Shown here: positions 5,151-37,881 of the stretch, piece after piece
Numbering within the stretch: the stretch's first letter is position 1
Layout of the letters: every line of letters starts with the position of its first letter
Source: Catenuloplanes sp. NPDC051500
GTDB lineage: Bacteria; Actinomycetota; Actinomycetes; Mycobacteriales; Micromonosporaceae
Reading direction: 5' to 3'
Length of the DNA stretch: 64,000 nucleotides
Assembly: GCF_044454585.1 (NCBI RefSeq)
Contig: NZ_JBITDX010000004.1
Span: 240,766 to 304,765, forward strand
Position numbers and translations under genes: made by a program
The notes under the pieces: model-generated
Databases searched by the model: none
Seen by the model: only the letters and a program-made list of their open reading frames with translations
What the model was told of the DNA's origin: nothing

Positions 5151-5259
5151 GCAATTTTCAACCTGGCGAGCGGGCCGACGCCACGGAGGAGTCCACCGGG
5201 CGGGCGCGCACGAGTCGGGACCGCGTTGAAAAAGGCTCAGTGACGGGGGGAGACCGATA

Positions 5260-5757: not shown

Positions 5758-5800
5758 CGGCCGCCACGGGCCCGTACCGGGGCGCTCACAGCGAGGTAAA

Positions 5801-6256: not shown

Positions 6257-6349
6257 TCCCCACGCGGTCCAGTCGTACATGTTCGGCCAGAGTCCGACGA
6301 CGGTCGATTACGAGTGTCGGCGCTGATCCCACGCGCCCGCACGTCGTAA

Positions 6350-7717
<1,368 letters not shown>

Positions 7718-8258: not shown

Positions 8259-8574
8259 CGGGAGCCAGCCGGTAGTGGGAGCGTCAGGCACGTGTCGTTC
8301 TCCGATCGCGGTAGGTGTGGTGGCCGTGCCGGGGGGAAACTCCTCACCCTGTGCAACGCCGCATGCGCACGGCGCGTAACGAGGGCGCGTGCGGGAGCGC
8401 GTTAAGCGGCTGTCGCAATCCGTTGTCACCTTCGTGACAAGTTCGATCAGACCTTTCTGTGCCGCACTGGTCACGGCGTAGGCTGCGCAGCGTGGTGGAT
8501 TCTCGGCGGGCGATCTCCGGCGAGGTCGGGTTCGGGTACTCATCGACAGCGCAGCGTGACAACGGGGTAGCAGA

Positions 8575-9321: not shown

Positions 9322-9446
9322 CGCCTGGGGCAGTGAGCAGGGCGGCGACGCATCCATCGACCGCAATGGCGTTTCTTGCGTTACTGTTCGCCGTTTGGAC
9401 AGCCGGTCGTAGTCTGCCGCACCTCCCATGACCTCACGGTGAGCCC

Positions 9447-10592
9447 ATGCGTATCGCGATCATCACGGAGTCGTTCCTGCCGGACGTCAACGGCGTCGCG
9501 CACTCCGTCGTGCGCGTAGCGGAGCATCTCGTCAACCAGGGGCACGAGCCGCTCGTCATCGCGCCGACCCCCTCGATGAACAACCGCCGGATCATGCCCA
9601 GCACCGACTATCCGGTGGTCCGCATCCCGAGCTTCCCGATGCTCGGCTACAAGGAGGTCCGGCTCGGACTTCCGGTGCCGAGGATCGCCGAGGCGCTCGA
9701 CGCGCACCAGCCCGACGTGGTCCACCTGGCCAGCCCGTTCATCCTCGGCGGGCGCGGCTCAGTGCTCGCCGCCCAGCGCGGGCTGCCCACCGTCGCGGTG
9801 TACCAGACGGACGTGGCCGCCTACGCCCGCCACTACAAGCTGGGCTGGGGCGAGGCCACGGCCTGGAAGTGGCTCAGGCAGATCCACAACACCGCGGACC
9901 GTACGCTGGCGCCCTCCACCGCGTCCGCCGAGGCGCTCATCGCGCACGGCGTCTCCCGGGTGTGGCTCTGGCGGCGCGGCGTCGACGTCGAGCGGTTCCG
10001 CCCGGACCACCGCTCCGAGATCGTCCGGAACACGCTGGCGCCGAACGGTGAGCTGATCGTCGGGTACGTCGGCCGCCTCGCCGTCGAGAAGCGGGTCGAC
10101 CTGCTCGCGAGGACCAGCCGGCTGCCCGGCGTCAAAGTCGTCATCGTCGGTGACGGCCCGGCCCGCAAGGAGCTGGAGAAGGCGGTGCCGGAGGCGCTGT
10201 TCCTCGGCGCCCGGCACGGCGAGCAGCTCGCCCGGCTCTACGCCAGCATGGACGTGTTCGCGCACACCGGGCCGTACGAGACGTTCGGCCAGACCGTGCA
10301 GGAGGCCATGGCGTCCGGCCTGCCGGTAGTCGCGCCCGCGGTCGGCGGCCCGGTCGACCTGGTCAAGCCGGGGGTGACAGGCGTGCTTGTGCCCCCGTGC
10401 GACGAGTCCGCGCTTGCCGATGCGATAGCGGACCTGGTGGCCGACGACGAGCGGCGCGTCGAGTACGGTCGCGCCGCACGGGCCGCGGTGGCCCGCAGAA
10501 GCTGGGCGGCGATTGGCGACGAGCTCCTCGGGCATTACGCTGCCGTGGTCACCGGTCGCGGTGTGCCGGCGCCCGTGCGGCTGGCCGCCTGA
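9447..10592 (+). CDS. glycosyltransferase family 4 (GT-B fold)
   Basis: MRIAIITESFLPDVNGVAHSV... with a C-terminal EAMASGLPVVAP (E-x7-E region). Confidence 0.85.
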   Translation: MRIAIITESFLPDVNGVAHSVVRVAEHLVNQGHEPLVIAPTPSMNNRRIMPSTDYPVVRIPSFPMLGYKEVRLGLPVPRIAEALDAHQPDVVHLASPFILGGRGSVLAAQRGLPTVAVYQTDVAAYARHYKLGWGEATAWKWLRQIHNTADRTLAPSTASAEALIAHGVSRVWLWRRGVDVERFRPDHRSEIVRNTLAPNGELIVGYVGRLAVEKRVDLLARTSRLPGVKVVIVGDGPARKELEKAVPEALFLGARHGEQLARLYASMDVFAHTGPYETFGQTVQEAMASGLPVVAPAVGGPVDLVKPGVTGVLVPPCDESALADAIADLVADDERRVEYGRAARAAVARRSWAAIGDELLGHYAAVVTGRGVPAPVRLAA

Positions 10593-10674
10593 CCTCGTGT
10601 CCACACTGCACGTCCGCCCCGACCTGGAGGTTCACCCGGTGCCGATCCCCGGCCAGCGCGCGGCGTCGGAGCCG

Positions 10675-11832
10675 ATGTCTCCGCCGCCGAGCGGCCTGCG
10701 CATCGTCCGGCTCGCGAACTTCGTGATGTCCCGCTCCGGGGGCCTGCGCACCGCGTTGCGCAATCTCGGCGAGGGTTACGCGGACGCTGGCCACGAGCCG
10801 ATCCTGGTCGTGCCCGGCGCGAAGGCGGGGGAGGAGATGACCTCCTACGGGCGGGTCATCACCGTGCCCGGCACCATGGTGCCGCGGACCGGCGGCTACC
10901 GGCTCATGATCGGCCACCGGCGACTCAAGCGCGTGCTGGAGGAGCTGCGGCCGGACCGGCTTGAGGTGTCCGACCGCAGCACGCTGCGCTGGACCGGCGA
11001 CTGGGCGAAGGCGCACGGCGTACCCTCGATCATGGTTTCGCATGAGAGCCTGGCCGGCCTGCTGACCGTCTGGGGTGTGCCGTCCCGGGTCGGCGGGCGC
11101 GCGGCCGACCTGCTCAACGCGAAGACCGCCCGGCAGTTCGACACGATCGTGTGCACGACCGGGTGGGCCGCCGCCGAGTTCAAGCGGATCGGTACACCTA
11201 ACCTGCTCGAGGTCCCGCTCGGCGTGGACCTGGACGCCTTCACCCCCAAATACCACGATCCGGGGGTACGGGCGAGGTTCGCGCGCGACGACGAGGCGCT
11301 TCTCGTGCACTGCAGCCGCCTCTCCCCGGAGAAGCGGCCCGAGCTGGCAATCGACGCGCTCGCCAAGCTGCTTGCCTCAGGTGTGAAGGCGTCGCTTGTG
11401 GTGGTCGGCGACGGCCCGCGGCGCGCCGCGCTGGCCTACAAGGCGGCCCGCCTGCCGGTCCGGTTCGCCGGCTTCATCAACGACCGGGCCACCGTCGCCG
11501 GGCTGCTGGCCAGCGCGGATGTGGCGATAGCGCCCGGCCCGGTGGAGACGTTCGGCCTGGCCGCGCTTGAGGCGCTGGCCTGTGGCACGCCGGTCGTGGT
11601 CAACGCGGCAAGTGCGCTGCCCGAGGTGGTCGGCGACGCCGGCGTGGCGGTCGCGGGGACCGGTGAGGGCTTCGCTGACGGCGTCAAGGAGTTGCTGGAC
11701 CGCCCGGAGGCCGCGCGCCGGCTGGCCGCGCGGGCCCGCGCGGAGCGATTCGGCTGGCCGGCCGCCATCGACGGCTTCCTTCGCGCCCACAATGCTGCCA
11801 CCCGCGAGCAGACCGACAAGGCCAGCGCATAG
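10675..11832 (+). CDS. glycosyltransferase family 4, second paralogue
   Basis: [18 protein letters not shown]...[10 protein letters not shown] at the N-terminus and [12 protein letters not shown] near the C-terminus. The start is assigned to the internal ATG at 10675. Confidence 0.8.
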
Positions 11833-11842
11833 GCTTTCGGCC

Positions 11843-12574
11843 ATGGCGCGTCCCGATGACCGAACGACCGACCAGCTCCGACCGGTGACCCTCGCCCGTC
11901 ACTGGAGTCCGAATCCGGAAGGGTCGGTGCTTGTCGAGTTCGGCGCCACCCGGGTGCTCTGCACCGCTAGCGTCACCGAGGGCGTGCCGCGCTGGCGGAA
12001 GGGCTCCGGGCTCGGCTGGGTGACCGCCGAGTACGCGATGCTTCCCCGCGCCACCAACTCCCGGTCCGACCGGGAGAGCGTGAAGGGGCGCATCGGCGGG
12101 CGTACCCACGAGATCTCCCGCCTGATCGGGCGCAGCCTGCGTGCCTGCATCGACCTGAAGGCGCTCGGCGAGAACTCGATCGTCCTCGACTGCGACGTGC
12201 TGAACGCGGACGGCGGCACCCGGACCGCCGCGATCACCGGCGCCTACGTGGCGCTGCACGACGCGGTCACCTGGATGTCCGGGAAGAAGATGCTCGGCGG
12301 CCGTACGGTCGAGAAGGTGGTGAACCGTTCGGTGTCCGCGATCAGCGTGGGCCTGATCGGCGGCGAGCCCCGCCTCGACCTCTGCTACACCGAGGACGTC
12401 GCGGCCGATGTGGACATGAACATCGTCTGTACCGGTGACGGCGACTTCGTCGAGGTCCAGGGCACCGGCGAGGCCACCGTCTTCGGACGGTCCCAGCTGG
12501 ACGCGCTGCTCGACCTGGGCGTGGCCGGCTGTGCCACCCTGGCCGAGGCCCAGCGGAAGGCGCTGCTCGGATGA
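11843..12574 (+). CDS. rph: ribonuclease PH
   Basis: [44 protein letters not shown]...[23 protein letters not shown]. The 5' part of the track ORF is an out-of-gene extension. Confidence 0.9.
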
Positions 12575-13179
12575 CCAAGCTGCTGCTTGCCACGCGGAAC
12601 GCGAAGAAGCTCACCGAGCTGCAGAACATCCTGGACGCCGCGCTCGGCGCCAGCCGGATCCAGCTGGTCGGGCTGGACGCGGTCCCGGAGTACCCCGAGG
12701 TGCCCGAGTCCGGTCTGACGTTCGGCGAGAACGCGTTGATCAAGGCGCGTGAGGGTGTGCGGCACACCGGCCTGCCCACGGTCGCGGACGACTCCGGCCT
12801 GGCCGTGGACGCGCTCTCCGGCATGCCCGGCGTGTTCAGCGCACGCTGGTCCGGCACGCACGGCGATGACCGGGCCAACCTCGACCTGGTGCTCGCCCAG
12901 ACCTCGGACGTACCCGAGCAGCACCGGGGCGCCGCGTTCGTCTGCGCGGCCGCGCTGGTCCTGCCCGGCGGCAAGGAGCACCTGGTCGACGGCCGGATGA
13001 CCGGCCGGCTGCTGCGCGCGCCGCGCGGCGAGGGCGGCTTCGGCTACGACCCGGTCTTCGTGGCCGAGGGGCAGCAGAAGACGAACGCGGAGCTGACCCC
13101 GGCGGAGAAGAACGCGATCAGCCACCGCGGCAAGGCGTTCCGCGCGCTGGCGAAGGTCATCGCGAAGGAACTCACCTGA
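12571..13179 (+). CDS. rdgB: non-canonical purine NTP pyrophosphatase (RdgB/HAM1)
   Basis: [14 protein letters not shown]...GFGYDPVF motifs. ATGA overlap with the rph stop. Confidence 0.9.
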
Positions 13180-13233
13180 GGTCTTGCCGCTGATTTCTCG
13201 CGCGAACCCCGTTGGTAACGCATTCAGTGCAGA

Positions 13234-14646
13234 ATGAGTCTCGTGTACGACTTCGACGTGCTGGTGCTGGGTTCGGGCCCGAGCGGGCAGAAGGCCGCGA
13301 TCGCTGCGGCGAAGCTGGATCGACGGGTCGCCATTGTCGAGCGACGCAACATGATCGGTGGCGTGTGCATCAACACGGGCACCATTCCGTCCAAAACGCT
13401 GCGTGAGGCCGTCGTCTACCTGACCGGCCTCAGTCAGCGGGAGGTCTACGGCCGCGACTACCGGGTCAAGGACGACATCACGGTGGCCGACCTGAGCGCG
13501 CGCACGTCGCACGTGATCGGCCGCGAGGTTGAGGTGATCCGCAGCCAGTTGCAGCGCAACCGCGTCCGGCTGCTCACCGGCACCGGCCGTTTCTTCGACG
13601 AGCACACCGTCTCCGTCGACGACGAGGGCGGCCGCGAGACCAAGGTGACGGCCGACAAGATCATCGTGGCGGTCGGCACCAAGCCGGCCCGCCCGCCGAC
13701 AGTCGACTTCGACGACCGGTCGATCATCGACTCGGATGGCATCATCAACCTTGAGGCCGTGCCGAACTCGATGATCGTGGTCGGCGCCGGCGTGATCGGC
13801 ATCGAGTACGCGTCGATGTTCGCCGCGCTCGGCACGAAGGTGACTGTGGTCGAGCGCCGCGACCGCATGCTTGAGTTCTGCGATCTCGAGATCATCGAGA
13901 GCCTGAAGTACCACCTGCGGGACCTGGCGGTCACGTTCCGGTTCGGTGAGACGGTCGCGTCCGTCGAGCGGCATCCGCGCGGCGCCATCGCCATGCTGGA
14001 GAGCGGCAAGCGGATCGGCGCGGACACCGTGGTGTTCTCGGCCGGCCGACAGGGTCTCGGCAGCGAGATCAACCTGGAGGCCGCGGGACTCGCCGCGGAC
14101 CCGCGCGGCCGCATAGAGGTCAACGAGAACTACCAGACCTCCGTCGATCACATCTACGCGGTCGGCGACATCATCGGCTTCCCCGCGCTCGCCTCCACCT
14201 CGATGGAGCAGGGCCGGCTTGCCGCGCACCACGCCTGCGGTGAGCCCGCACGCGACATGCAGAAGCTGCAGCCGATCGGCATCTACACGATCCCGGAGAT
14301 CAGCTTCGTCGGGCGCACCGAGGACGAGCTCACCGAGGCGCGCATCCCGTTCGAGGTGGGCATCGCGCGGTACCGTGAACTGGCCCGCGGCCAGATCATC
14401 GGCGACTCGTACGGCATGCTCAAGCTCCTTGTCGCACCGGACGACGGCAAGCTGCTCGGCGTGCACGTCTTCGGCACCGGCGCCACCGAGCTTGTGCACA
14501 TCGGCCAGACCGTGATGGGCTGCAACGGCACTGTCGACTACCTGGTCGACGCCGTCTTCAACTATCCGACGCTTGCCGAGAGCTACAAGGTCGCCGCGCT
14601 CGACGCGATGAACAAGACGCGGCACATCCACCGCATCGCGACCTGA
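13234..14646 (+). CDS. sthA: soluble pyridine nucleotide transhydrogenase (FAD/NAD-binding disulfide oxidoreductase family)
   Basis: [15 protein letters not shown]...[18 protein letters not shown]-terminus and 470 aa length. Confidence 0.85.
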
Positions 14647-26006: not shown

Positions 26007-26849
26007 CTAGGGGGCGAAGATCTGCCTGCGCGCCGCGGAGGCCTCGAACTCCTCCAGCCGGCGTTGGGTCTCGTCCGGCGCCGCGTCGCAGATCGCCTGC
26101 AGCAGCACCATGGCCAGCGTCATCGGCGCGGTATGCAGGTCGAAGACCAGCCCGGCCCCGACGCGCGCGGTGAGCACGACGTCTGCCGTCTCGGCCGCCG
26201 GGCTGACCGGCGAATCCGTGATCACCACGGTCCGCAGGCCAAGTGCGCGCGCTTCGGCCAGCGCATCAAGCGTCTCGCGGGGATATCGGGGCAGCACAAT
26301 CGCCAGCATGGCGCTCGCACCGGCGGCCCGTGCCTGTTCCAGCCGATCGGTCAGCAGCGTGCCGCCGGTGTCCAGCACCCGCACGTCCGGCAGCACCTTC
26401 GCCGCGAAGAACCCGAAGTACGCGGCGAGCGGCGCCGCGGCCCGCAGGCCCACCACCGGCAGCGGCCGGGAGGCGGCAAGCAGTGTGCCCGCCCCGGTGA
26501 GCGCGTCCCCGTCGGCGAGGTCCCCGGCCAGCCGTTCCAGATTCGCCATCTCCTGACGTACCGCATGCTGCACTTCGTTGGTGTCGTCCCGCCCCGCCCC
26601 GGCGGGGGAGTCGACCGAGGCCTCGCGCAGCAGCTGCCGTAACGCCGGGTAACCGTCATGGCCGAGCGCCATCGCGAACCGGGTCACCGACGGCTGGCTG
26701 ACACCGGCCAGATCCGCCACCTCGGCCGCGGACAGCCAGGCGGCCGCGCCCGCGTGCAGCACAAGCGTGTGGGCGATCCGGCGCTGCGTCGGCGTCAGCC
26801 GGACATCGGCGAAGAGCGCGAGCACCCGCTCTGCACTCTTTGTATTCAT
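26007..26849 (-). CDS. RpiR-family transcriptional regulator (HTH_6 + SIS domain), probable hut regulator
   Basis: HTH AEVADLAGVSQPSVTRFAMALG followed by SIS-domain segments. First gene of the minus-strand hut operon. Confidence 0.75.
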   Translation of the reverse strand: MNTKSAERVLALFADVRLTPTQRRIAHTLVLHAGAAAWLSAAEVADLAGVSQPSVTRFAMALGHDGYPALRQLLREASVDSPAGAGRDDTNEVQHAVRQEMANLERLAGDLADGDALTGAGTLLAASRPLPVVGLRAAAPLAAYFGFFAAKVLPDVRVLDTGGTLLTDRLEQARAAGASAMLAIVLPRYPRETLDALAEARALGLRTVVITDSPVSPAAETADVVLTARVGAGLVFDLHTAPMTLAMVLLQAICDAAPDETQRRLEEFEASAARRQIFAP

Positions 26850-26985
26850 GTGCTGATCGTATGCATGAATCCATTCAGAGTCCACCGGCGCCCCGATGAT
26901 CGGATGACGGCGTTCGGGGGACTTTGCCTTAGGTCTCCCTTAGAAACCTGGTGTCGTCACGCACCGTGCGGAAGCATCCGATCTC

Positions 26986-27969
26986 GTGCATGACGAGACG
27001 ACTCTGCTGTCCACCCTCCCCGGCAAACGCCGCCGCCCGAAGTCACCGGTCGCCTGGCTCGCCGCCGCCGGTGTCGCCGCGCTCGGCGGTGTGGTCGGGC
27101 TGGCGCTGATGCTGCAGTCCGGCTCGTCCGCCGCGTGCGCCGCCGCGCTCACCGGCAAGGCCACGTTCTACGACATCGCCGGTGGCGGCGGCAACTGCTC
27201 CTACGACGGCCCGCCCGCCGACCTGCTCCACGTGGCGATGGGCCCCGGCGAGTACGGCGATGCGGCCGCGTGCGGCGGCTACCTGGACGTGACCGGCCCG
27301 AAGGGCAAGGTCAGGGTCAAGGTCGTGGACAAGTGCCCGGAGTGCGCGCAGGGCCACATCGACCTCAGCAAAGAGGCGTTCGCGAAGATCGGCAACCCGG
27401 TCGACGGCATCATCCAGGTCAGCTACGCCTCGGTGGTCAACCCGCCGCTCCCCGGCCCGCTCACCTTCCGGATCAAGGAAGGCGCCTCCCAGTACTGGTT
27501 CTCGGTCCGGATCGACAACACCGGTAACGCGCTCAAGTCCGTCCAGGCGAAGACCGCAGGCGGCAGCTTCGTGACGCTCCAGAAGTACGACTACAACTTC
27601 TGGCAGGCGGACAGCGGGCTCGGCCCCGGCCCGTACACGATCAAGGCCACCGACGTGCAGGGCAACACCGCGACAGTCGACGGCGTCAAGCTGGCCCCCG
27701 GCAGCACCCAGTCCAGTGGCGTGAAGATGTACGGCTCCGGCGCCAACACCGGCTCCGCGTCCGGCGGCGGGGCGGCAGCCGCGGCCGCACCCGCCCCGGC
27801 CAAGGCGACCTCCGCCGCACCGTCGCCGTCGCCGTCGGCCTCCGCGTCGCCGTCCGCCTCGGCCTCCGCGTCCGCCTCGCCCGTGGCCACCGCCTCGGCG
27901 GCTGACGCGCTTGAGGTGCAGCCGCTGGCCGCCACCACGCTCAAGGCCCAGGAGACCGCCTGCGGCTAG
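26986..27969 (+). CDS. secreted bacterial expansin (EXLX/YoaJ-like: DPBB D1 + CBM63-like D2) with a Ser/Ala/Pro-rich C-terminal tail
   Basis: Signal/TM segment, then GKATFYD..GGGNCSY...AACGGYLDVTGPKG.VRVKVVDKCPECAQGHIDLSKEAFAKI (D1), then YWF.V.....G..L......K......F.......W-like (D2), then SPSPSASASPSASASA. Confidence 0.7.
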   Translation: MHDETTLLSTLPGKRRRPKSPVAWLAAAGVAALGGVVGLALMLQSGSSAACAAALTGKATFYDIAGGGGNCSYDGPPADLLHVAMGPGEYGDAAACGGYLDVTGPKGKVRVKVVDKCPECAQGHIDLSKEAFAKIGNPVDGIIQVSYASVVNPPLPGPLTFRIKEGASQYWFSVRIDNTGNALKSVQAKTAGGSFVTLQKYDYNFWQADSGLGPGPYTIKATDVQGNTATVDGVKLAPGSTQSSGVKMYGSGANTGSASGGGAAAAAAPAPAKATSAAPSPSPSASASPSASASASASPVATASAADALEVQPLAATTLKAQETACG

Positions 27970-28012
27970 GCGGACAGGCGGCCCGCGGCTAGCTGCTGTC
28001 CTGGTCGAGTGC

Positions 28013-28558
28013 TCAGCGGAGTGGGAGCCACATGTGGATCTCGTCGCGGTCGTCGCCGGGGGCCACCCGGATGGCGCCCGGCAGGCGGCCGACCTCCTTG
28101 TAGCCGGCGCGCTGGTAGAAGCGCTCGGTGCCGTTACCGGCCCGGACGGTCAGGTGCAGCGCCTCCCAGCCGGAAGCCCGGGCCACCCGCTCCGCCTCGG
28201 CGAGCAGCGCGCGACCGTACCCCCGGCCCTGGGTCGCGGGGTGGATCATCACGCGCTTGAGCGTGCGCCAGTGCATCCGCAGGTGGAACCGGTTACTCGC
28301 GAAGAACAGCAGTCCGACCAGGCGCCCGTCGTCGTGCCCGACAAGCAGCCGGTCCTCGCCGTCCTCGAGCCCCACGAACGTCGCGCGCGCAAGCGCCGCC
28401 ACCGCATCCCGCTCCACCGGCGGCACGAACCCCACGGCCCCGCCCGCCTCCGATGCGGCATGCCACAGGTCGACGATCTCCTCCCGAAGCCGTTCATCCA
28501 GCTCCGGATCCACCCGCCACACCACGCTCATCAGGCTATTTTCATCGCCGCACGCCAT
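28013..28558 (-). CDS. GNAT-family N-acetyltransferase
   Basis: RVMIHPATQGRGYGRALLAEAERVAR (acetyl-CoA binding motif A). The start may be Met-10. Confidence 0.85.
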   Translation of the reverse strand: MACGDENSLMSVVWRVDPELDERLREEIVDLWHAASEAGGAVGFVPPVERDAVAALARATFVGLEDGEDRLLVGHDDGRLVGLLFFASNRFHLRMHWRTLKRVMIHPATQGRGYGRALLAEAERVARASGWEALHLTVRAGNGTERFYQRAGYKEVGRLPGAIRVAPGDDRDEIHMWLPLR

Positions 28559-28640
28559 TGTTCACCCCTGTGGGCACCAAACTGCGACACGCGTCTCTGT
28601 TCTGCGCGTTTCAGTTGCGCATTCCTTCTAGGCTGTCCGC

Positions 28641-29474
28641 GTGACCGACGCATTCAGAAACGACGATGCGGATGTTGAGGAGCGGAAGCTCCGGTTGCGG
28701 GCCGCCCTGGACGATCTGCGGGCCGGCCGCCTCCAACCCGGCGTCGACGTAGCGGCCCCGGGCGAGACGCCCGCGGAGACGTTCGGTGAGGCCGCGGACG
28801 GTCAGGTGCGTGCGGCCGCGAGCGCGGGCCGTCTCGGCCTGCTGGAGATCGACGCCGTCCTGATGCGCCGTGACCTCGACGAACTCGGCACGCTCTGCGC
28901 CTCCGCGATCACCGGCGCGCTGCGCGGGCAGCGTGACGCCGACCCGCTCGCGGGCTCGACGCCGGACCTGGGCGCGCTCGGCGACATGCTGCAGGGCGTG
29001 CAGGCCGAGGGCATGCGCACGATGGCCCGCATCGAGCAGGCGCTCGGCGCGGTCATCGCGGATGTCGGCCCGCGCACCGGCATGGCCGGCGACCCGCGCG
29101 CCGCCGGCCTGGACGATGTGCTCAGCGCGACCGTGGCGGGCCTGCGTGCGGCCGGAGCGGTCACACCTGCGGAAACCGAGCGTCGCGGCCTCGGCGGCGA
29201 CGGCGCGGTGGCGGCAGTTATCGGATCCGGCGGCGTGATCGGGCTGGAGTTAAGCCCGCAACTCTCCCGTGCGCAGTCGCACGAACTCGCGGCGGCCATC
29301 GTGCAGGCCGTGAACGCGGCGCTCACCGAGCCACCGCCGGACACCGCCGCACCTGCCGCCGACCTGACCGGCCTCTCGCGCCGCATGGAAGAGCTGCGCG
29401 ACGCGAGCCTGACGCAGATGACCGCCTACTCGACCGCACTCCGATCGATCATGAACCGAATCGGTGAGCCGTAG
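28641..29474 (+). CDS. tandem YbaB/EbfC-like domain protein
   Basis: Two repeats with the YbaB-like pattern G.V.V.V..G.L..L.ID...L..D.E.L..L...A.N.A (residues around 55-105 and 200-245). GTG start. Confidence 0.55.
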   Translation: MTDAFRNDDADVEERKLRLRAALDDLRAGRLQPGVDVAAPGETPAETFGEAADGQVRAAASAGRLGLLEIDAVLMRRDLDELGTLCASAITGALRGQRDADPLAGSTPDLGALGDMLQGVQAEGMRTMARIEQALGAVIADVGPRTGMAGDPRAAGLDDVLSATVAGLRAAGAVTPAETERRGLGGDGAVAAVIGSGGVIGLELSPQLSRAQSHELAAAIVQAVNAALTEPPPDTAAPAADLTGLSRRMEELRDASLTQMTAYSTALRSIMNRIGEP

Positions 29475-29482
29475 GAGGACTC

Positions 29483-29807
29483 ATGCAGACGTTCCAGGTG
29501 GACCCGGACGGCATGCGCGGTTCCGGCGAAGGCATCCAGACAGCTGTCGGAAACCTCGACGACGCGCTGACCTCATTCGAGAACGAACTGGCCGGGTACG
29601 GCGAACCGTGGGGCGCCGACGACCTCGGCAGCATGCCTGGCCATCGAGATCGCGCAGGCCATCGCGACCGCGGTGGCGACGTTCGGCGCGTCGCTGCTGG
29701 AGATCCCCATCTTCCGCATGCTGACCAAGCTGGTGCTGGACCAGATCTCCGGTTTCGTCGATCCAGGTTCGGACCGCTGGAAAACGGCGTTTCCGCTCAT
29801 TACGTGA
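29483..29807 (+). pseudogene. EspC/WXG100-like small secreted-protein gene with an apparent +1 frame disruption near 29625-29640
   Basis: Frame 1 (MQTFQVDPDGMRGSGEGIQTAVGNLDDALTSFENELAGYGEPWGADDLGS) becomes Arg-rich nonsense after about residue 50. The protein-like continuation (LAIEIAQAIATAVATFGASLLEIPIFRMLTKLVLDQISGFVDPGSDRWKTAFPLIT*) is in the next frame and has no start codon of its own. Combined length is about 108 aa. Confidence 0.45.
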
Positions 29808-29818
29808 TTGGTGTCGAG

Positions 29819-30223
29819 ATGCGCGATTCAATGTCCTTCTACCGCACGTCGGACGGCTTCTTGACGTTTCGGTCGGACACCGGGTTCTTCAAAGATCTCG
29901 GCTCCTGGATGACCAGCGACATCCAGAGCTATGCGCCGGAGTGCCTGGAGTTCCTGGCGATCCTGGAGGATGTCCGCGCCGGGCGGCGGGACACCGAGTC
30001 GATCGAGGGAAATGCGTATCAGGCGATCGTGACCGGCGACGCCGTGCGTGTGCAGAACATGTTCGTCGAGTCGGGGGAGGACTACACCTTTCAGGAGGCC
30101 CACTCGGTGATCATCGACTACTGGAAGTGGCTGACGCCCGAAGCGGAGGATCGCTCCGCGCAGATCGCGGCGTGGACGGCGGAGTTTGGGCGGGAGCATC
30201 CGTGTCTCGGGCATCTCGGATGA
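29819..30223 (+). CDS. hypothetical protein (134 aa)
   Basis: MRDSMSFYRTSDGFLTF...IIDYWKWLTPEAEDRSAQIAAWTAEFGREHP has protein-like composition (F/Y/W/K-rich, low Arg). It is the 3' part of track ORF 29483..30223. Confidence 0.5.
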   Translation: MRDSMSFYRTSDGFLTFRSDTGFFKDLGSWMTSDIQSYAPECLEFLAILEDVRAGRRDTESIEGNAYQAIVTGDAVRVQNMFVESGEDYTFQEAHSVIIDYWKWLTPEAEDRSAQIAAWTAEFGREHPCLGHLG

Positions 30224-30301
30224 GTCGATCTACGGCTTGACGCGTTGTGCCATCATCGTGACTGTTGAAAGCGCAGGTCACATGGGGAGGCTGCTGCCGC
30301 G

Positions 30302-30949
30302 ATGGGCGGATTCATCGATGCCGCGCTGGGTTTTCCGGCGGTGTTGTTCAGCTTCCTGCTCGTAGTGGTGGTCGGGTACTGGCTGTTGGTCATCGTCGGC
30401 GGCGCTGATGTCGACGGGCTGGACGGCGACGGCGGTGAGGCCGGTGAGGTCGGCGGGATTTCCGGCGCGCTGGCCTGGCTTGGCCTCGGCGGCGTACCCG
30501 TGACGGTCATCCTGTCGCTTCTGGTGGCCTTCGCCTGGTTCGTGAGTCTGGCGGGCACTGTGGCACTCGGCACCACCGGCCTGAACGGCGGCCTCATGAT
30601 CGCGTTGTCCGTGGGGGTGCTGGTCGTGGCGCTTGTGGTCGCGTTCGGGCTCACCCGGGTGCTGGCCGGCGTGCTGTCGCGGATCATGCCGATCGGGCCG
30701 CAGCCGTCGCGCGGGGACTTCATGGGCGCCACCTGCGTGATCCGGACGGGGTCGGTGACGGCCACGTTCGGCCAGGCCGAGGTGCATGCGGCGGACGGCT
30801 CGTCCTCGATCATCCAGGTGCGGCAGCCTGGTGCCGAGGTTTTCCGGGCCGGGTCGAAAGCCATCATCTACGACTTCGACACCGTCGGCGAATTCTTCTG
30901 GGTCATGCCGGTCGACGCGGTTCCCGGCATTACCGAACACACCGCGTAA
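30302..30949 (+). CDS. NfeD-like membrane protein (partner of flotillin/SPFH)
   Basis: Multiple TM helices and a C-terminal OB-fold-like segment (GATCVIRTGSVTATFGQAEVHAADGSSSIIQVRQ). RBS GGGGAGG. Lies immediately upstream of flotillin. Confidence 0.75.
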   Translation: MGGFIDAALGFPAVLFSFLLVVVVGYWLLVIVGGADVDGLDGDGGEAGEVGGISGALAWLGLGGVPVTVILSLLVAFAWFVSLAGTVALGTTGLNGGLMIALSVGVLVVALVVAFGLTRVLAGVLSRIMPIGPQPSRGDFMGATCVIRTGSVTATFGQAEVHAADGSSSIIQVRQPGAEVFRAGSKAIIYDFDTVGEFFWVMPVDAVPGITEHTA

Positions 30950-30994
30950 AGCTTTTATCACCCCCACCTTTCTCGTACCGAAAAGGGATTCTCT

Positions 30995-33007
30995 ATGGAT
31001 GTGATCACCACGGGACTCGGTGTGCTGCTCGCCGTTGTCCTGCTCGTCCTCATCGGCATGGTCTTTCTGGTCAGCCGGCTCTTCCGGAAGGTAGAGCAGG
31101 GTAAGGCGCTGATCGTCTCGAAGGTGCGGAAGGTGGATGTCACGTTCACCGGCGCCGTGGTGATGCCGGTGCTGCACAAGGCCGAGATCATGGACATCTC
31201 GGTGAAGACGATCGAGATCGACCGGGCCGGGCACGAGGGCCTGATCTGCCGGGACAACATCCGCGCGGACATCCGGATCACGTTCTTCGTCCGGGTGAAC
31301 AAGACCACCGAGGACGTCATCAAGGTCGCCCAGGCCATCGGTACGGCCCGCGCCTCCGATCAGAACACGCTGCAGGAGTTGTTCAGCGCGAAGTTCTCCG
31401 AGGCGCTGAAGACGGTCGGCAAGCAGCTGGACTTCGTCGACCTGTACACGAAGCGCGACGAGTTCCGTGACCAGATCATCGCGGTGATCGGCACCGACCT
31501 CAACGGGTACAGCCTCGAGGACGCGGCGATCGACTTCCTGGAGCAGACGCCTGTCTCCCGCCTCGACCCGAAGAACATTCTCGACGCGCAGGGCATCCGG
31601 AAGATCACCGAGCTGACCGCGGTCGAGGCCGTGAAGACGAACGAGTTCCAGCGCACCGAGGAGAAGGAGATCACCCGGCAGAACGTGGACGCCCGGGAGA
31701 CCATCCTCGAGCTGCAGCGCCGCCAGGCCGAGGCGGAGATCCGCCAGAAGCGCGAGATCGAGACGATGCGCGCCCGCGAGGAGGCCGAGACCGCCAAGGT
31801 GTACGCGGAGGAGCGGCTGCGCTCCCGGACCGCGGATCTGCGCACCGAGGAGCAGCTGGGCATCCAGTCGGAGAACCAGGCCCGGGAGATCGCGGTCGCG
31901 GCGAAGAACCGCGAGCGGGTCATCGCGATCGAGACCGAGCGGATCGAGAAGGACCGCATGCTTGAGGTCATCTCCCGGCAGCGCGAGACCGAGCTCTCCA
32001 CGATCTCCAAGGACAAGGAGGTCGAGGGCGAGCGGCGGGCCATCGCCGAGGTTGTCAGGGAGCGGATCGCGGTCGAGAAGACCGTGGCCGAGCAGGAGGA
32101 GAACATCAAGCGGCTGCGCGTGGTCGAGGAGGCCGAGCGCACCCGCCAGGCGGTGATCATCAACGCCGAGGCCGAGGCGCAGGAGGTCCTGGTCAAGAAC
32201 ATCAAGGCGGCGGAGGCGTCCGAGGCGGCCGCGAAGTTCAAGGCCCGCGAGGAGCTGGTGCTGGCCGAGGCCCGGCAGCAGGCCGCCGAGCTGGACACCC
32301 GCGCCCGGATCCGGCTCGCCGAGGCGGCCCAGGCCACCGCGGCCGCCGAGGGTCTGGCCGAGGTCCAGGTCCGCGAGCGCAACGCGGAGGCGATCGAGAA
32401 GGTCGGCCGCGCCGAGGCGATCGTCGACCGGGAGAAGGCCCTGGCCGGCGCGGACGCGCTGCGCGAGAAGCTGAAGGGCGAGGCCGAGGGTCTCACCGAG
32501 AAGGCCGCCGCGATGGCCGCGCTGACCGACGCGTCCCGCGACCACGAGGAGTACCGGCTGCGTCTTGAGGCGGAGAAGGAGATCCGGCTGGCCGGCATCG
32601 ACGTGCACCGGCAGGTGGCGGAGGCACAGGCGATGGTGGTCGCGGCAGGTCTGGAGAAGGCAAACATCGACATCGTCGGCGGGGACAGCGTCTTCTTCGA
32701 CAAGCTGCTCGGCTCGATCACGCTCGGCAAGAGCATCGACGGGTTCATGGCGAATTCCGAGGTGGCTCAGTCGCTCGTCGCGCCGTACGCGAACGGCAAC
32801 GGCAACCTCCCCGCGGACCTGGGCAAACTGCTCGGCTCGATGTCCACGGCCGACGTGTCGAACCTGACGCTGTCCGCGTTCCTGATCCAGCAGATGAAGT
32901 CCGCGAGCAGCGCTGACGAGGCGAAACTGCGTGAGTTGCTGGAGAGCGCGCGCCGCCTCGGCGTGGCGGACAAGTCCGTCGCCGAGCTGACCCCGGCCGC
33001 GAAGTGA
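30995..33007 (+). CDS. flotillin-family SPFH/band-7 protein
   Basis: N-terminal TM segment, an SPFH domain, and a long EA-rich coiled-coil (flotillin domain). 670 aa. Confidence 0.85.
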   Translation: MDVITTGLGVLLAVVLLVLIGMVFLVSRLFRKVEQGKALIVSKVRKVDVTFTGAVVMPVLHKAEIMDISVKTIEIDRAGHEGLICRDNIRADIRITFFVRVNKTTEDVIKVAQAIGTARASDQNTLQELFSAKFSEALKTVGKQLDFVDLYTKRDEFRDQIIAVIGTDLNGYSLEDAAIDFLEQTPVSRLDPKNILDAQGIRKITELTAVEAVKTNEFQRTEEKEITRQNVDARETILELQRRQAEAEIRQKREIETMRAREEAETAKVYAEERLRSRTADLRTEEQLGIQSENQAREIAVAAKNRERVIAIETERIEKDRMLEVISRQRETELSTISKDKEVEGERRAIAEVVRERIAVEKTVAEQEENIKRLRVVEEAERTRQAVIINAEAEAQEVLVKNIKAAEASEAAAKFKAREELVLAEARQQAAELDTRARIRLAEAAQATAAAEGLAEVQVRERNAEAIEKVGRAEAIVDREKALAGADALREKLKGEAEGLTEKAAAMAALTDASRDHEEYRLRLEAEKEIRLAGIDVHRQVAEAQAMVVAAGLEKANIDIVGGDSVFFDKLLGSITLGKSIDGFMANSEVAQSLVAPYANGNGNLPADLGKLLGSMSTADVSNLTLSAFLIQQMKSASSADEAKLRELLESARRLGVADKSVAELTPAAK

Positions 33008-36000
33008 CCGAGAACCTCGACGCCGGCACCTATGAGGTGCTCCGCGGCCGGCTCGCCGAGCAGGCCGCGGAGTTGGCCCGCCGCGCCGAACGTCTCAACG
33101 TCAAGCGCGCGGAGACGTTCGGCGGCGCGGAACTGCGCCTGCTCGGCACCGAGCGGATCCGGACCGAGAACAACTGCGTGCCGCGCGACATCGTGTCCGT
33201 CGGCGGGCTGATGCTCTTCGGCTACAACGTCTTCATCGGCCTGAAGTCGGAGACGTCGATCGACGACGTCTTCGCGTTGCACGGCTTCGTCCGTACCCCC
33301 GATGCCTTCAGGTTTGATGAGCCGGGCCCGGTGCCGGGGTTGCTCGACGACGAGCGGTTCCAGCGGGACTTCGCGGAGCTGTACAAGTACTACCGGCAGA
33401 CGAAGCTGATGCAGCTGCGCCGGATGGAGGGGCGGCTGCTGGCCGTCTTCCAGACCGGCGCCCGGGCGGACGATCTGCGCGTGCTGCGCTGGCAGACCGC
33501 GCCGGACGGCACCGTCTCCTATCTGGACAACCGGGGCGAGCGCGAGCACGTGTTCCCGCCCGCGCACGACTTCGAGTGGACCGAGACCGGGCGTGACCAG
33601 CACGTTCTCGGCCGGCACCCGCACATCTCGATCGAGGACCAGGTCTTCGTCGAGACGGTCGGCGGCACGCTGACCATCAAGGTGGAGAACAACACCGAGG
33701 ACGGCGAGGGGATCTACGGCGAGCCGGTCGACGAGCCGCTGCAGAGCCTCGCGGACGCGGAGATCGCCTACGCCCGGGTCGGCACGCTGATCCTGCTCAA
33801 GATCCTGCCGTACAAGGAGACGGTCCACAGGTACCTGGTCTTCAACATCCGGACCCGGACCGTGGTCCGGCTGGACGGCATCGGGCAGGCCTGCCAGCGC
33901 CTGCCCGAGGACCAGGGCCTGATCTTCCCGGGCGGTTACTACCTGGACACCGGCATCGTGAAGACGTTCGACACGGACGTGGCGGGGCTGGAGTTCGAGA
34001 AGGTCATCCGGTCCCCGAACGGCGAGGACGTGCTCTACGTCTTCCACGCCCGGGACGAGGGCCGTTACCTGCTGCTGCCGTACAACCTGATCCGCAAGGA
34101 GGTCGCGAACCCGTTCACCTGCCACGGGTACTCGCTCTTCGACGACGGCACGCTCATCGTCTTCCGCGCGGTGTCCGACGAGCCGACCCGGGTGCACCCG
34201 GTGCAGGTGTGGCAGACGCCGTTCCTGTCCGACACGTTCGCGGCCGCCCAGCCGGCCGGCGAGGGCACGCTGGCCCGGATCGGCAACGCGGAGCTGGTCC
34301 GCGGCATCTCCGAGGCGGTCTCGGTCGCCCGGATGGTCGGCGAGATGAGCCCGTCGCAGGCCGTCTACGAGGGACTTATCGCGGCCTGCACACGCGCGTT
34401 CGACAACTACCACTGGCTGGGCGAGGCCGAGCTCGGCGACCTGCGCACGCCGCTGTCCGAGGTGCGGGCCACCGCAGCGCAGGTGCTCGACGAATTCGAG
34501 AAGGTCCAGGCGCTCACCGCGCAGGCCGCGACCGCGCTCGGCACCGCGTCGTCCGAGGTCAACGCCATGATCCGGCGATCCCGGGGTGAGACGCCGACCT
34601 CCACGTCGGAGTGGGTCACACGACTGGCCGCGCTGCGTGCGGCACAGGGACGGCTCGGCTCGCTCCGTGAGGTGCGCTATGTGGATCTCGCGGCGCTGGA
34701 GACGGTGTTGAACGATCTCCAGGCGGAGACCGGATCGTTCGCCAAACGGGCCGTCACCTTCCTGAGCGACGCCGACGCGTTCACGTCGTACCACGTCACT
34801 GTCGCCGAACTTGAGGCCGACGCGGGCACCATCGAGACGGTGGCGTCCTCGGCCGCGGTCCAGGAGCGGATCGACACGCAGGCCACCGGCCTGCAGACGG
34901 TCACCGAGGTGGTCGGCTCGCTGGACATCGCGGACGCGACCGTCCGGGTCGGAATCCTGGAGCGGGTCGGCGAGGTCCTCGGCGGCCTCAACCGGGCCCG
35001 TGCGGTCCTTGACGGCCGCCGCCGCGCGCTGCTCGACCGGGAGGGGCGGGCCGAGTTCGCCGCCGAGTTCGCGCTGCTCGGGGCGGCAATCACCGGCGCG
35101 CTCGCGGTCGCGGACACGCCTGAGACGTGCGACGAGCAGCTCGGCCGGCTGATGCTTCAGCTGGAGAACCTGGAGTCCCGGTTCTCCGACTTCGACGACT
35201 TCCTGGCCCAGCTGTCGACCAAGCGCACCGACGTGTACGAGGCGTTCTCGTCCCGCAAGCAGGCGCTGCTCGACGACCGCTCACGCCGCGCGGACCGGCT
35301 CGTCGACTCCGCCGAGCGGATCCTCGGCAGCGTCGGCCGCCGGGTCGCCACGCTGAGCACGCTCGACGAGGTCAACACGTACTTCGCCACCGACCCGATG
35401 GTCGCCAAGCTGCACTCCGTCGCGGACGAGCTGCGCACCCTCGGCGACAGCGTGCGCGCGGAGGAACTGGCCGGCCGGGTCAAGGCCGCGCGCCAGGAGG
35501 CCGGCCGGTCGCTTCGTGACCGCCTCGACCTGTTCGCGGACGGTGGCGGCACGATCCGGCTCGGCAAGCACCGGTTCGCTGTCAACACCCAGGCCGTGGA
35601 CCTGACCATGGTTCCGCACGACGGCGAGATGACGTTCGCGGTCACTGCCACCGACTTCAGGTCCCCGGTCCGCGACGCCGCGTTCGCGGCCACCCGGCCG
35701 TTCTGGGAGCAGCTGCTCGCCTCCGAGTCCGCGGACGTCTACCGGGCCGAACACCTGGCCGCCACGGTGCTCGCGGCGCGGCCGGCCGACGCCACCGCGG
35801 ACCTCAAGGAGATCGTCCGCCGGGAAGCCGAGACCAGATACGACGAGGGGTACGAGCGGGGCGTCCACGACGTCGACGCCGCGCTGATCCTCGACGCGCT
35901 GCTGCGCCTCCAGGCCGGCGCCGGGCTGCTGCGCTTTCCCGCGGGCGTACGCGCGGCGGCTCAGCTCTTCTGGGCCTTCGGGGTCTCCGAGCCGGACCGG

Positions 36001-37881
36001 GTGGTCTGGACGCGGCGGGCCTCGTCGCTGATCCGCGCCCGCGCCGTGTTCGGTACCGCCGGCCCGGCGCTGCGTGACCTGGCGTCCACGCTCGGCGCCG
36101 CGGCAACTGTCTTCCTCGGCGAGGCCGGGCTGCCGGTCGACGAGCCGGAGCAGGTGGGGGAGTACCTGGTCGAGGAGCTGGCGGGTCAGCCGTTCGGGTT
36201 CGCGACAAGCGCGGATGCTCGTACCCTGCTCGATCGTTTCCGCCGTGCGCTAGGTGGCGCCGCGGCGCCCTCCGGACGCGACTTCGACGAGGATCTGCGT
36301 GCCCTCGACGACCTCGCGGCGCGACACCAGCTGGCATCCGCGTGGCTCGGCGCCTACCTGGCCTCCACCGGGGCCGAGGCGCCGCCTGAGCTGCCCGAGG
36401 CCGTCGCGTTGCTGCTGACCCCGGACCTGCCCAGGCATGACTCGTCCGCGGCGCTCTCGCTCGATGTGAGCGGGCTTCTCGGCGCACACTCGCGGATCAA
36501 GGACCGGACGCTCACCGTGCGGCTGGACGAGTTCCTGCCGCGCACCCGCCGGTTCCGCGAGGAGCGGATGCCCGCCTACCGCGCGTACCAGCGGCAGCGC
36601 AACGCGCTCGCCACGGCCGAGCGGGCCCGGCTGCGCCTGGACGAGTTCACGCCGCGGGTGATGAGCGCGTTCGTCCGCAACCGGCTGCTCGACGAGGTCT
36701 ACCTGCCGCTCATCGGCGACAACCTGGCCCGCCAGCTCGGCGCGGCCGGCGATGCGAAGCGCACCGACCAGATGGGCCTGCTGCTGCTCATCTCGCCGCC
36801 CGGCTACGGCAAAACCACTCTGATGGAGTACGTGGCGAGCCGGCTCGGCCTGGTCTTCGTCAAGGTCAACGGCCCGGCGCTGGGACACGGCGTGACCTCG
36901 CTCGACCCGGCCGAAGCGCCGAACGCGACAGCGCGCCAGGAGGTGGAGAAGATCTCGTTCGCCCTGGAGATGGGCAACAACGTGCTGCTCTACCTGGACG
37001 ACATCCAGCACACCAACCCGGAGCTGCTGCAGAAGTTCATCTCGCTGTGCGACGCGCAACGGCGGATGGAGGGCGTCTGGGACGGTGCCACCCGCACCTA
37101 CGACCTGCGCGGTAAGCGGTTCGCGGTGTGCATGGCCGGCAACCCGTACACCGAGACCGGCACCCGTTTCCGCATCCCGGACATGCTCGCCAACCGGGCC
37201 GACGTGTGGAACCTCGGCGACGTGCTGTCCGGCCGTGATGATCTGTTTGCTCTCAGTTACATCGAGAACGCGCTGACGTCGAACGCGGTGCTGGCGCCGC
37301 TCTCCACCCGTGAGCGCGGCGACATCGAGCTGCTGGTCAGGCTGGCCCGGGGCGACGAGACCGCGCAGGCGGACAAGCTCACCCACCCGTACTCCGCGGT
37401 CGAACTTGACGGCATCCTCGCGGTGCTCCGCAAGCTGCTCCGGGTCCAGGAGGTCGTGCTCACTGTCAACCGCGCCTACATCGCGTCCGCCGCGCAGGCG
37501 GAGGAGTCGCGCACCGAGCCGCCGTTCAAGCTGCAGGGCTCGTACCGCAACATGAACAAACTCGCGGAACGCGTGGTGCCGGTGATGAACGACGCCGAAC
37601 TCGAACTGGCGATCGACGACCACTACCTCGGCGAGGCGCAGACGCTCACCGGCGGCGCGGAGGCCAACCTGCTGAAGCTCGCCGCGCTGCGCGGGCGTCT
37701 CACCGAGGCGCAGGCCGCACGCTGGGAAGAGGTCAAGGCCGGGTTCCTCCGGCAGGCCGCGCTGGGCGGCGCCGGGGACGACCCGATGAGCCGTGCGGTC
37801 GGCGCGGTCGGGCTGCTCGCGGACCGGGTGTCGGAAGCCATCGACCGCGCCGCGGCGGCGACGCGGTCGACGACATCCTGA
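33004..37881 (+). CDS. giant conserved protein (1625 aa) with a C-terminal AAA+ (AAA_5/MoxR-like) ATPase domain
   Basis: Walker A LLLISPPGYGKTTL, Walker B NVLLYLDDIQ, and a sensor-like CMAGNP.TETG. The GTG overlaps the flotillin stop (GTGA). Confidence 0.8.
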   Translation: MTENLDAGTYEVLRGRLAEQAAELARRAERLNVKRAETFGGAELRLLGTERIRTENNCVPRDIVSVGGLMLFGYNVFIGLKSETSIDDVFALHGFVRTPDAFRFDEPGPVPGLLDDERFQRDFAELYKYYRQTKLMQLRRMEGRLLAVFQTGARADDLRVLRWQTAPDGTVSYLDNRGEREHVFPPAHDFEWTETGRDQHVLGRHPHISIEDQVFVETVGGTLTIKVENNTEDGEGIYGEPVDEPLQSLADAEIAYARVGTLILLKILPYKETVHRYLVFNIRTRTVVRLDGIGQACQRLPEDQGLIFPGGYYLDTGIVKTFDTDVAGLEFEKVIRSPNGEDVLYVFHARDEGRYLLLPYNLIRKEVANPFTCHGYSLFDDGTLIVFRAVSDEPTRVHPVQVWQTPFLSDTFAAAQPAGEGTLARIGNAELVRGISEAVSVARMVGEMSPSQAVYEGLIAACTRAFDNYHWLGEAELGDLRTPLSEVRATAAQVLDEFEKVQALTAQAATALGTASSEVNAMIRRSRGETPTSTSEWVTRLAALRAAQGRLGSLREVRYVDLAALETVLNDLQAETGSFAKRAVTFLSDADAFTSYHVTVAELEADAGTIETVASSAAVQERIDTQATGLQTVTEVVGSLDIADATVRVGILERVGEVLGGLNRARAVLDGRRRALLDREGRAEFAAEFALLGAAITGALAVADTPETCDEQLGRLMLQLENLESRFSDFDDFLAQLSTKRTDVYEAFSSRKQALLDDRSRRADRLVDSAERILGSVGRRVATLSTLDEVNTYFATDPMVAKLHSVADELRTLGDSVRAEELAGRVKAARQEAGRSLRDRLDLFADGGGTIRLGKHRFAVNTQAVDLTMVPHDGEMTFAVTATDFRSPVRDAAFAATRPFWEQLLASESADVYRAEHLAATVLAARPADATADLKEIVRREAETRYDEGYERGVHDVDAALILDALLRLQAGAGLLRFPAGVRAAAQLFWAFGVSEPDRVVWTRRASSLIRARAVFGTAGPALRDLASTLGAAATVFLGEAGLPVDEPEQVGEYLVEELAGQPFGFATSADARTLLDRFRRALGGAAAPSGRDFDEDLRALDDLAARHQLASAWLGAYLASTGAEAPPELPEAVALLLTPDLPRHDSSAALSLDVSGLLGAHSRIKDRTLTVRLDEFLPRTRRFREERMPAYRAYQRQRNALATAERARLRLDEFTPRVMSAFVRNRLLDEVYLPLIGDNLARQLGAAGDAKRTDQMGLLLLISPPGYGKTTLMEYVASRLGLVFVKVNGPALGHGVTSLDPAEAPNATARQEVEKISFALEMGNNVLLYLDDIQHTNPELLQKFISLCDAQRRMEGVWDGATRTYDLRGKRFAVCMAGNPYTETGTRFRIPDMLANRADVWNLGDVLSGRDDLFALSYIENALTSNAVLAPLSTRERGDIELLVRLARGDETAQADKLTHPYSAVELDGILAVLRKLLRVQEVVLTVNRAYIASAAQAEESRTEPPFKLQGSYRNMNKLAERVVPVMNDAELELAIDDHYLGEAQTLTGGAEANLLKLAALRGRLTEAQAARWEEVKAGFLRQAALGGAGDDPMSRAVGAVGLLADRVSEAIDRAAAATRSTTS

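Follow-up and report, generated by a model that had tools for sequence, protein, structure and literature searches.

How does a small gene come to change its reading frame halfway along, between two intact neighbours? The question is raised by a short gene cluster of Catenuloplanes sp. NPDC051500, lying in a 64-kb stretch of DNA (70% G+C) that was analysed as a whole and is called the window below. An earlier annotation of this DNA, referred to here as the sequence-only reading, had described a 277-aa (amino acid) protein with two YbaB/EbfC-like repeats, a frameshifted small protein resembling EspC/WXG100 proteins, and a 134-aa orphan protein. The analysis described here indicates that the region (28562..30221, + strand) is very probably what is left of a polymorphic-toxin cassette with five genes, of the type VII (ESX)-associated kind; it is 1.66 kb long, compared with about 2.7 kb for the intact form. 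The toxin has been lost from it, and the likely immunity gene has been left an orphan.

The disrupted small gene consists of three gene remnants

The 277-aa gene is intact at 28641..29474 (+), as judged from the table of open reading frames (ORFs) and from the sequence. The small ORF starts, as had been claimed, 8 nt past its stop codon, with an ATG at 29483 that is preceded by GGAGGA 4 nt upstream. In a plot of third-position GC content (GC3) the coding frame is that of 29483 until about 29620-29640, then switches to the frame of 29481/29637 (GC3 0.93-1.00), with the break at 29635/29636, and returns at about 29800. This switch shows that the disruption noted earlier near 29625-29640 is real. 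The shifted frame encodes a hydrophobic peptide, LAIEIAQAIATAVATFGASLLEIPIF..., which the sequence-only reading had taken for the second half of that small protein.

Repair of the small protein by one base was tried and rejected: the repaired product matched no Pfam or NCBIfam family, and a homology search showed it to be a chimera, with matches splitting into two unrelated groups. In the first group, residues 1-52 match proteins of 107-109 aa, namely P0002, P0003 and the C. atrovinosus protein P0001, for which NCBI gives the name WXG100 family type VII secretion target. The C-terminal half of these three proteins, MIGLVYTAIRDIAFECLDANLEDM..., is unrelated to the shifted-frame peptide. The second group consists of more than 100 proteins of the PF25547 (WXG100_2) family, 150-166 aa long, whose C-terminal part matches LAIEIAQAIATAVATFGASLLEIPIFRMLTKLVLDQ with 70-90% identity. 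P0001 and the 164-aa P0006, which matches PF25547 at 54.3 bits, are encoded on the same C. atrovinosus contig.

The loci of relatives, reached through look-ups of individual proteins, allowed the pieces to be assigned. The first, 29483..29635 (+), corresponds to codons 1-51 of a 107-aa WXG100-like gene (MQTFQVDPDGMRGSGEGIQTAVGNLDDALTSFENELAGYGEPWGADDLGSM) and aligns to positions 6611-6763 of the C. atrovinosus contig L004 and 10-162 of the read-assembly contig L007 with 82-89% nucleotide identity. The second, 29636..29743 (+), begins with one stray C, followed by 36 codons of a 164-aa WXG100_2 gene read from 29637; it is 87.5-90.6% identical to L004 8348-8474 and L007 684-810. This piece encodes part of the hydrophobic C-terminal segment and has no in-frame start codon at its head, the first being a GTG at 29673. 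The third, 29744..29807 (+), is continuous with the last 64 nt of 176-aa genes of the EndoU family PF14436 (L004 8955-9018, L007 1291-1354) and comprises their last 20 codons, ISGFVDPGSDRWKTAFPLIT, and the stop codon (29805-29807). These 20 codons are all that is kept; the EndoU catalytic domain is gone from the window. An EndoU toxin gene, as its remnant indicates, was thus once present at this site, which the sequence-only reading had missed.

Comparison by blastn of the window with L004 gave three collinear blocks: 26009-29635 with 3219-6763, 29636-29763 with 8348-8474, and 29744-34000 with 8955-13244, the matches to the WXG100_2 and EndoU genes overlapping over 29744-29763. The same three-block pattern was seen with L007, which carries no insertion sequence. 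Junction 1 (29635..29636, equal to L007 162|684) was placed by base-by-base comparison, blastn and alignment, and junction 2 (29743..29744, equal to L007 792|1291) by base-by-base comparison and the blastn overlap. Relative to L007, junction 1 lacks 521 bp, a number not divisible by three, and the two sides are joined out of frame, without microhomology. A join through a shared GATC would be in frame, and the observed junction is without the two bases concerned. At junction 2, 108 nt downstream of junction 1, 499 bp were lost with one shared G, so that the end of the toxin gene continues the reading frame of the WXG100_2 remnant. The missing codons are the 3' half of the 107-aa gene, the first 116 codons and the end of the 164-aa gene, and, of the 176-codon toxin gene, about 156 codons. 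The pseudo-ORF at 29483-29807 is therefore composed of three gene pieces welded together by two deletions.

It was considered whether the same region could be a single gene of about 108 codons, of EspC/WXG100 type, in which an indel of 1-2 nt near 29625-29640 (a sequencing error or a young pseudogene) has put the protein's own helix into the +1 frame. In its favour, the frame does change, the N-terminal part is similar to WXG100 proteins, and MAFFT places both kinds of C-terminal half in the same columns. Nevertheless, the intact orthologues (P0001, P0002, P0003 and that of L007) carry the other C-terminal half, MIGLVYTAIRDIAFECLDANLEDM..., the shifted-frame peptide is 70-90% identical to separate 164-aa PF25547 proteins, the two sequences lie 521-1584 bp apart in intact loci, and the final 20 codons belong to the EndoU gene. 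A single indel is thus barely credible. Since the two parts are homologous to two separate genes (at least 521 bp apart), there is no protein of about 108 aa to repair: of the earlier claim the frame change survives, and its cause is a deletion junction of two genes, not one indel. Programmed ribosomal frameshifting was rejected as well, as the two frames belong to different genes and no relative has such an arrangement.

The C. atrovinosus locus has an additional feature at the first junction. A transposase gene of the IS481 family (L004 6931-7884, - strand) lies there between the 107-aa gene, whose end it overlaps, and the 164-aa gene, so that relative to C. atrovinosus the loss at junction 1 amounts to 1584 bp. 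The element lies exactly within the stretch that deletion 1 took out of the window. No trace of IS481 was seen in the window, and for this reason a deletion mediated by the insertion sequence is a speculation.

The ratio of nonsynonymous to synonymous substitutions (dN/dS) in the WXG100 remnant is 0.06-0.14, with a dS between the strains of about 0.45-0.6. The low values suggest that the deletions are recent relative to the divergence of the strains.

Read-through across the scar and the reality of the deletions

In GenBank the scar and the gene behind it appear as one ORF of 246 codons (29483..30223, +), hypothetical protein ACIA8K_10515 (WP_396057187.1), to which the translation had an exact match in the protein collection. 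This ORF might be a genuine, selected fusion of a WXG100 N-terminal helix, a linker and the 134-aa domain: it is open, it has a good ribosome-binding site, it is present in GenBank, and translation from 29483 would physically yield the 246-aa product. The linker speaks otherwise. Its 61 codons have, across 29636-29800, a GC3 of 0.40-0.60 in the fusion frame compared with 0.80-1.00 in the ancestral frame, of which they are the coding sequence read out of frame. In the real genes of the window, 62% of 61-codon stretches are free of stop codons in the same off-frame, and protein homology searches found no such fusion in other genomes. A selected fusion is thus very unlikely; given how often such off-frame stretches are open, the 246-aa ORF can be regarded as a chance read-through, with no evidence for a fusion gene.

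Both deletions could also be artefacts of assembly, the real genome holding the intact five-gene cassette. Only a single assembly of the strain is known, and a paralogous module in the same genome (see below) could confuse an assembler. Misassembly is nonetheless improbable in the extreme, because the junctions join non-repeated sequences that share 0-1 nt. Moreover, the flanks are collinear with those of relatives over tens of kb, the contig is 529 kb long, and the remnants, with 87-91% identity to L004 and L007, are orthologues of these loci and not derived from the paralogue.

Intact, empty and decayed loci in related genomes

The intact locus was seen in C. atrovinosus, and on three contigs from metagenomes or read assemblies as well. 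The intact gene set consists of a YbaB-like gene, a 107-aa WXG100-like gene, a 164-aa WXG100_2 (PF25547) gene, an EndoU (PF14436) gene of 174-177 codons, and a gene of 134-135 codons. In L004 the order is: HTH/SIS regulator (- strand), expansin-like gene, GNAT acetyltransferase (-), 275-aa gene, 107-aa gene, IS481 transposase (-), 164-aa PF25547 gene, 176-aa EndoU_bacteria (PF14436) gene, 134-aa gene, NfeD-like gene, SPFH gene (670 aa) and DUF3686/AAA gene (1630 aa). The L004 EndoU protein matches PF14436 with an E value of 2e-20 (73.9 bits, residues 36-174). Bacterial EndoU toxins have a catalytic centre of the type His-His-Lys/Ser-Thr. The 164-aa PF25547, 176-aa PF14436 and 134-aa genes are common to L004, L005 and L006, and L004 additionally has the YbaB-like and 107-aa genes. 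L007 carries the 107-aa gene followed by the 164-aa PF25547, EndoU and 134-aa-type genes, a JGI contig carries 107-aa, 164-aa, EndoU-174 and 135-aa genes, and L008 has the toxin gene with a 148-aa homologue of the 134-aa protein. The trio described in the sequence-only reading thus has an intact five-gene counterpart in relatives; a fused small protein was found in none of them.

The whole cassette is absent from C. indicus (L009) and C. nepalensis (L010), where the GNAT gene is directly followed by the NfeD-like/SPFH operon. Their homology to the window ends at 28561 and resumes at about 30221/30281, with an unrelated spacer of about 130-230 bp in between. No repeats or mobility genes were found at the edges of the cassette. 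As judged from these loci the cassette is accessory, and its site occurs in three states in the genus: empty, intact (with or without IS481) and decayed.

The retained 134-aa gene

The gene at 29819..30223 (+) is intact in NPDC051500, and so is the 11-nt spacer ahead of it. Its dN/dS is 0.11-0.21. The intact ORF of the sequence-only reading is confirmed; the description of its product as an orphan has to be given up in view of its relatives and its context. The family is very small: four matches were found among 5.8 billion proteins and, at E values of at most 0.001, about 38 distant cluster representatives among 1.84 billion. The homologues with 91, 86, 59 and 52% identity are each encoded directly after an EndoU gene, and this order was found in 4/4 intact lineages, that is, in every intact locus seen. 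These observations make it probable that the 134-aa protein is the cognate immunity protein of the lost EndoU toxin.

Evidence from structure is of limited help here. The AF2 model of the 134-aa protein is reasonable (pLDDT 81). A Foldseek search with it did not reproduce a match to 5HKQ, the structure of an EndoU-type tRNase bound to its own immunity protein (PMC9086364), and for that reason the fold evidence is taken as supportive only. The family profile gave chance-level matches only when compared with the sequences of the PDB, and searches of genome contigs with the 134-aa protein or its close alignment returned no matches. The partner toxin of NMB0503 would also be an EndoU, a point given no weight as evidence here.

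Sub-threshold Pfam matches to UPF0231 (the YacL family) were obtained with five of 26 family members, the best at an E value of 5.9e-5. They hint at a distant YacL-like link of the putative immunity family. The 134-aa protein might accordingly be a regulator related to UPF0231/YacL, or else a secretion adaptor or chaperone for the toxin, and be retained for reasons unrelated to protection; we consider this unlikely, and prefer the assignment as an immunity protein.

On the short metagenome contig L014, the sequence upstream of a 38%-identical homologue (positions 1-215) is a tandem repeat encoding (SRGGRHQ)n-like sequence, in place of an EndoU gene.

The retained YbaB-like gene

The 277-aa protein matches the Pfam family YbaB_DNA_bd (PF02575) at residues 179-230 with an E value of 3.6e-5 and 24.3 bits, just below the cut-off of 25.5. 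The claim that it carries two YbaB/EbfC-like repeats holds nevertheless, since a 144-aa single-unit paralogue, encoded on the read-assembly contig L013, passes the cut-off (26.0 bits) and aligns to both halves: to residues 30-146 with 36% identity and to residues 183-274 with 30%. The internal repeat of the 277-aa protein shows 33% identity over 49 aa, and residues 45-96 weakly match the YbaB structure 1j8b in the PDB (E 0.19). Its AF2 model is poor (pLDDT 46), but in the predicted secondary structure a unit of three strands, short helices and one long helix occurs twice. Only two close relatives were found; the orthologue in C. atrovinosus is 73% identical, with a dN/dS of 0.33, and had no PF02575 match in a Pfam scan. 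The YbaB-fold proteins EspL, EspD and EspH are proposed chaperones of mycobacterial ESX substrates (PMC6109436, PMC6319747), and YbaB/EspL-like genes lie in substrate operons of the ESX-4 regulon (PMC13491425). By analogy, the 277-aa protein is probably a chaperone of secretion substrates.

A paralogous module and the separation of putative targeting protein and toxin

Contig L013 carries, at 855-3185, a second version of the module: the 144-aa YbaB-like gene, a 107-aa gene, a 164-aa gene, a 215-aa ORF and a 135-aa ORF. Its 164-aa protein is identical to ACIA8K_27575, which NCBI lists from NPDC051500 itself. The 215-aa ORF has no Pfam match and is unrelated to EndoU, and the 135-aa ORF that follows it is a different one; the former is a putative new toxin. 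The predicted pair of toxin and downstream gene thus differs between the modules, as is expected of polymorphic toxin-immunity systems.

In all four intact modules examined the ATG of the toxin gene is embedded in a conserved AATGG(C/T)TAG sequence closing the 164-aa gene, with an 8-nt overlap (L004 8486-8495, L007 822-831, L013 2129-2138 and L008 117-126). This arrangement indicates that the targeting protein and the toxin are separate and probably translationally coupled. At its C-terminal end the 164-aa protein is strongly hydrophobic over about 75 residues. Its type is represented in Micromonospora, Actinosynnema, Glycomyces, Thermomonospora and other genera, and in the literature searched no paper describing the five-gene module itself was found. 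We put forward, as a tentative and rather doubtful extension, that the intact module may be an undescribed split type VII toxin of actinobacteria, with separate targeting protein and toxin, the former ending in a membrane-like tail, and that the window shows its decay to a defence-only state in which an immunity gene and a chaperone-like gene are left.

Family membership of the small proteins and the type VII link

WXG100 proteins typically form a helix-turn-helix, are some 100 residues long, and carry WxG in the middle and the secretion motif YxxxD/E towards the C terminus. The intact orthologues of 107-109 aa do not show this full set of hallmarks; they have a central PWG(A/G/T)DD, and at the position of the C-terminal motif YEAVD (P0003), YDAVE (L013) or, in the Catenuloplanes copies, FAAAE. 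The copy in the window, ending after codon 51, is without the second helix and the secretion motif. When the profile of the 107-aa family was compared with the PDB, the WXG100 proteins SAG1039 and gbs1074 (3gvm, 3o9o) came first, with E values of 0.014 and 0.027. The resemblance to EspC (PF10824), which had been proposed together with that to WXG100, was not borne out (residues 2-34, E 0.067, 14.1 bits with a Pfam gathering cut-off of 23.5). The WXG100 similarity of the family is weak and below threshold, but consistent, and the pairing of YbaB-like with WXG100-like genes stood up as a type VII-related context.

Several points weigh against the interpretation of the region as a remnant of a type VII-associated cassette. 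Scores for WXG100 (PF06013) stay at 13-21 bits (13.1 for the window fragment, 14.0 for P0001 and 21.2 for P0003), below the gathering cut-off of 27.3. As the sequence-only reading had also stated, no type VII core genes (EccC-type FtsK/SpoIIIE ATPase, EccB/D, mycosin) were found among the large ORFs with coding-like GC3 of the 64-kb window. The ten largest of those that had no other assignment carry Pfam domains unrelated to type VII secretion, and the 1625-aa ORF is DUF3686 + AAA. With no core gene in the window, the dependence of the cassette on type VII secretion would follow from family resemblance only. The toxin that would have to be recognised for export is, furthermore, encoded apart from the WXG100_2 protein. 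Finally, the whole argument is built on assembled sequence.

Proposed function and significance

WXG-domain polymorphic toxins linked to type VII secretion have been described in Actinobacteria (PMC3482391), and the following picture of the intact system is drawn from the resemblance to them and to the esxF-esxE-cpnT-ift operon. The two WXG100-type proteins (107 and 164 aa) would probably associate with each other and direct the EndoU RNase to the type VII machinery, with the YbaB-like protein probably stabilising them in the cytosol as a chaperone and the 134-aa immunity protein probably binding and blocking the RNase in the producer. After the deletions, NPDC051500 would no longer make or export the EndoU toxin, and the immunity gene it has kept would still protect it against the same toxin from relatives such as C. 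atrovinosus. The chaperone-like gene may have been kept because the deletions are recent, or because its product also serves the paralogous module elsewhere in the genome. The toxin-immunity-like and decaying-locus options of the sequence-only reading were both essentially right.

Several consequences follow from the analysis. The annotation of WP_396057187.1 is corrected: it is a read-through over a deletion scar, and the 134-aa ORF, not the 246-aa one, is the real gene. A very rare protein family gains a testable proposed function, immunity to an actinobacterial EndoU toxin. The three states of the island within one genus provide material on the loss of a weapon with retention of the defence in interbacterial conflict. 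As an experimental object, the five-gene module is more interesting than the scar.

Neighbouring genes and other features of the window

The cassette is bordered on the left by the GNAT acetyltransferase gene (28013-28558, - strand) and on the right by the NfeD-like/SPFH operon, which starts at 30302 on the + strand. This operon (30302-37881) encodes an NfeD-like membrane protein (215 aa), an SPFH/flotillin protein (670 aa) and the 1625-aa protein, in which DUF7902 was found in addition to the DUF3686 and AAA domains; it is syntenic in 4/4 Catenuloplanes genomes seen. A type II toxin-antitoxin pair unrelated to the cassette is located at 52126-52640 (+), where the gene of a YefM/Phd antitoxin (85 aa, PF02604, E 9e-19) overlaps that of a YoeB toxin (PF06769, E 5e-35). 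At 5801-7717 (+) there are a JAB/Mec+-like ORF (151 aa), a ThiS/MoaD-like ORF of 107 aa with a GG-containing end and a CysM/CysK-like ORF, which, judged from their translations only, look like a CysO-type sulfur-carrier pathway of cysteine synthesis.

Comparison with known systems

The LXG toxins of Bacillota, with their Lap1/Lap2 helpers and DUF4176 chaperones, share with the intact module an operon of helical partners, targeting domain, polymorphic toxin and immunity gene (PMC5555719, PMC13492133). They differ from it in protein families and phylum, and in them the toxin domain is part of the same polypeptide chain as the LXG domain. EspL, EspH and EspD of ESX-1 and the EspL-like genes of ESX-4 operons are similar to the retained 277-aa gene in being YbaB-like, in lying beside WXG100-type substrates and in the proposed role of their products as cytosolic chaperones (PMC6109436, PMC6319747, PMC13491425). 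The protein of the window, by comparison, is a tandem duplication with marginal sequence similarity, and is encoded far from any ESX core locus. For toxin and immunity protein, CdiA-CT/CdiI of E. coli STEC_O31 (PDB 5HKQ) and related EndoU toxin-immunity pairs are among the closest known systems.

The module as a whole resembles the esxF-esxE-cpnT-ift operon of M. tuberculosis, whose products are exported through ESX systems (PMC13491425). In both cases small WXG100-type proteins are encoded upstream of the toxin, a WXG100_2/CpnT-N (PF25547) region would serve for targeting, and the immunity gene is directly downstream. In Catenuloplanes, however, the PF25547 part is a separate 164-aa protein with a hydrophobic end and the toxin a separate ORF, probably translationally coupled to it; the toxin is a predicted EndoU RNase and not a TNT NAD+ glycohydrolase; and there is one WXG100-like gene instead of two, together with a YbaB-like gene. 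The Catenuloplanes system is known from sequence alone.

As regards its present state, the region is closest to the orphan immunity genes and decayed toxin loci of contact-dependent inhibition (CDI), type VI and type VIIb systems, in which the toxin is lost or truncated and the downstream immunity gene is intact and constrained (PMC10539506, PMC9484751, PMC3482391). There, too, close relatives differ in having the cassette, lacking it or carrying a degraded form. What distinguishes the locus of NPDC051500 is its host, a member of the Micromonosporaceae, its WXG100-type (type VIIa-like) module, a scar that fuses three genes, and the retention of the chaperone-like gene as well. The combination of a scar with an orphan immunity gene is thus a known evolutionary pattern, found here in a little-studied actinomycete module.

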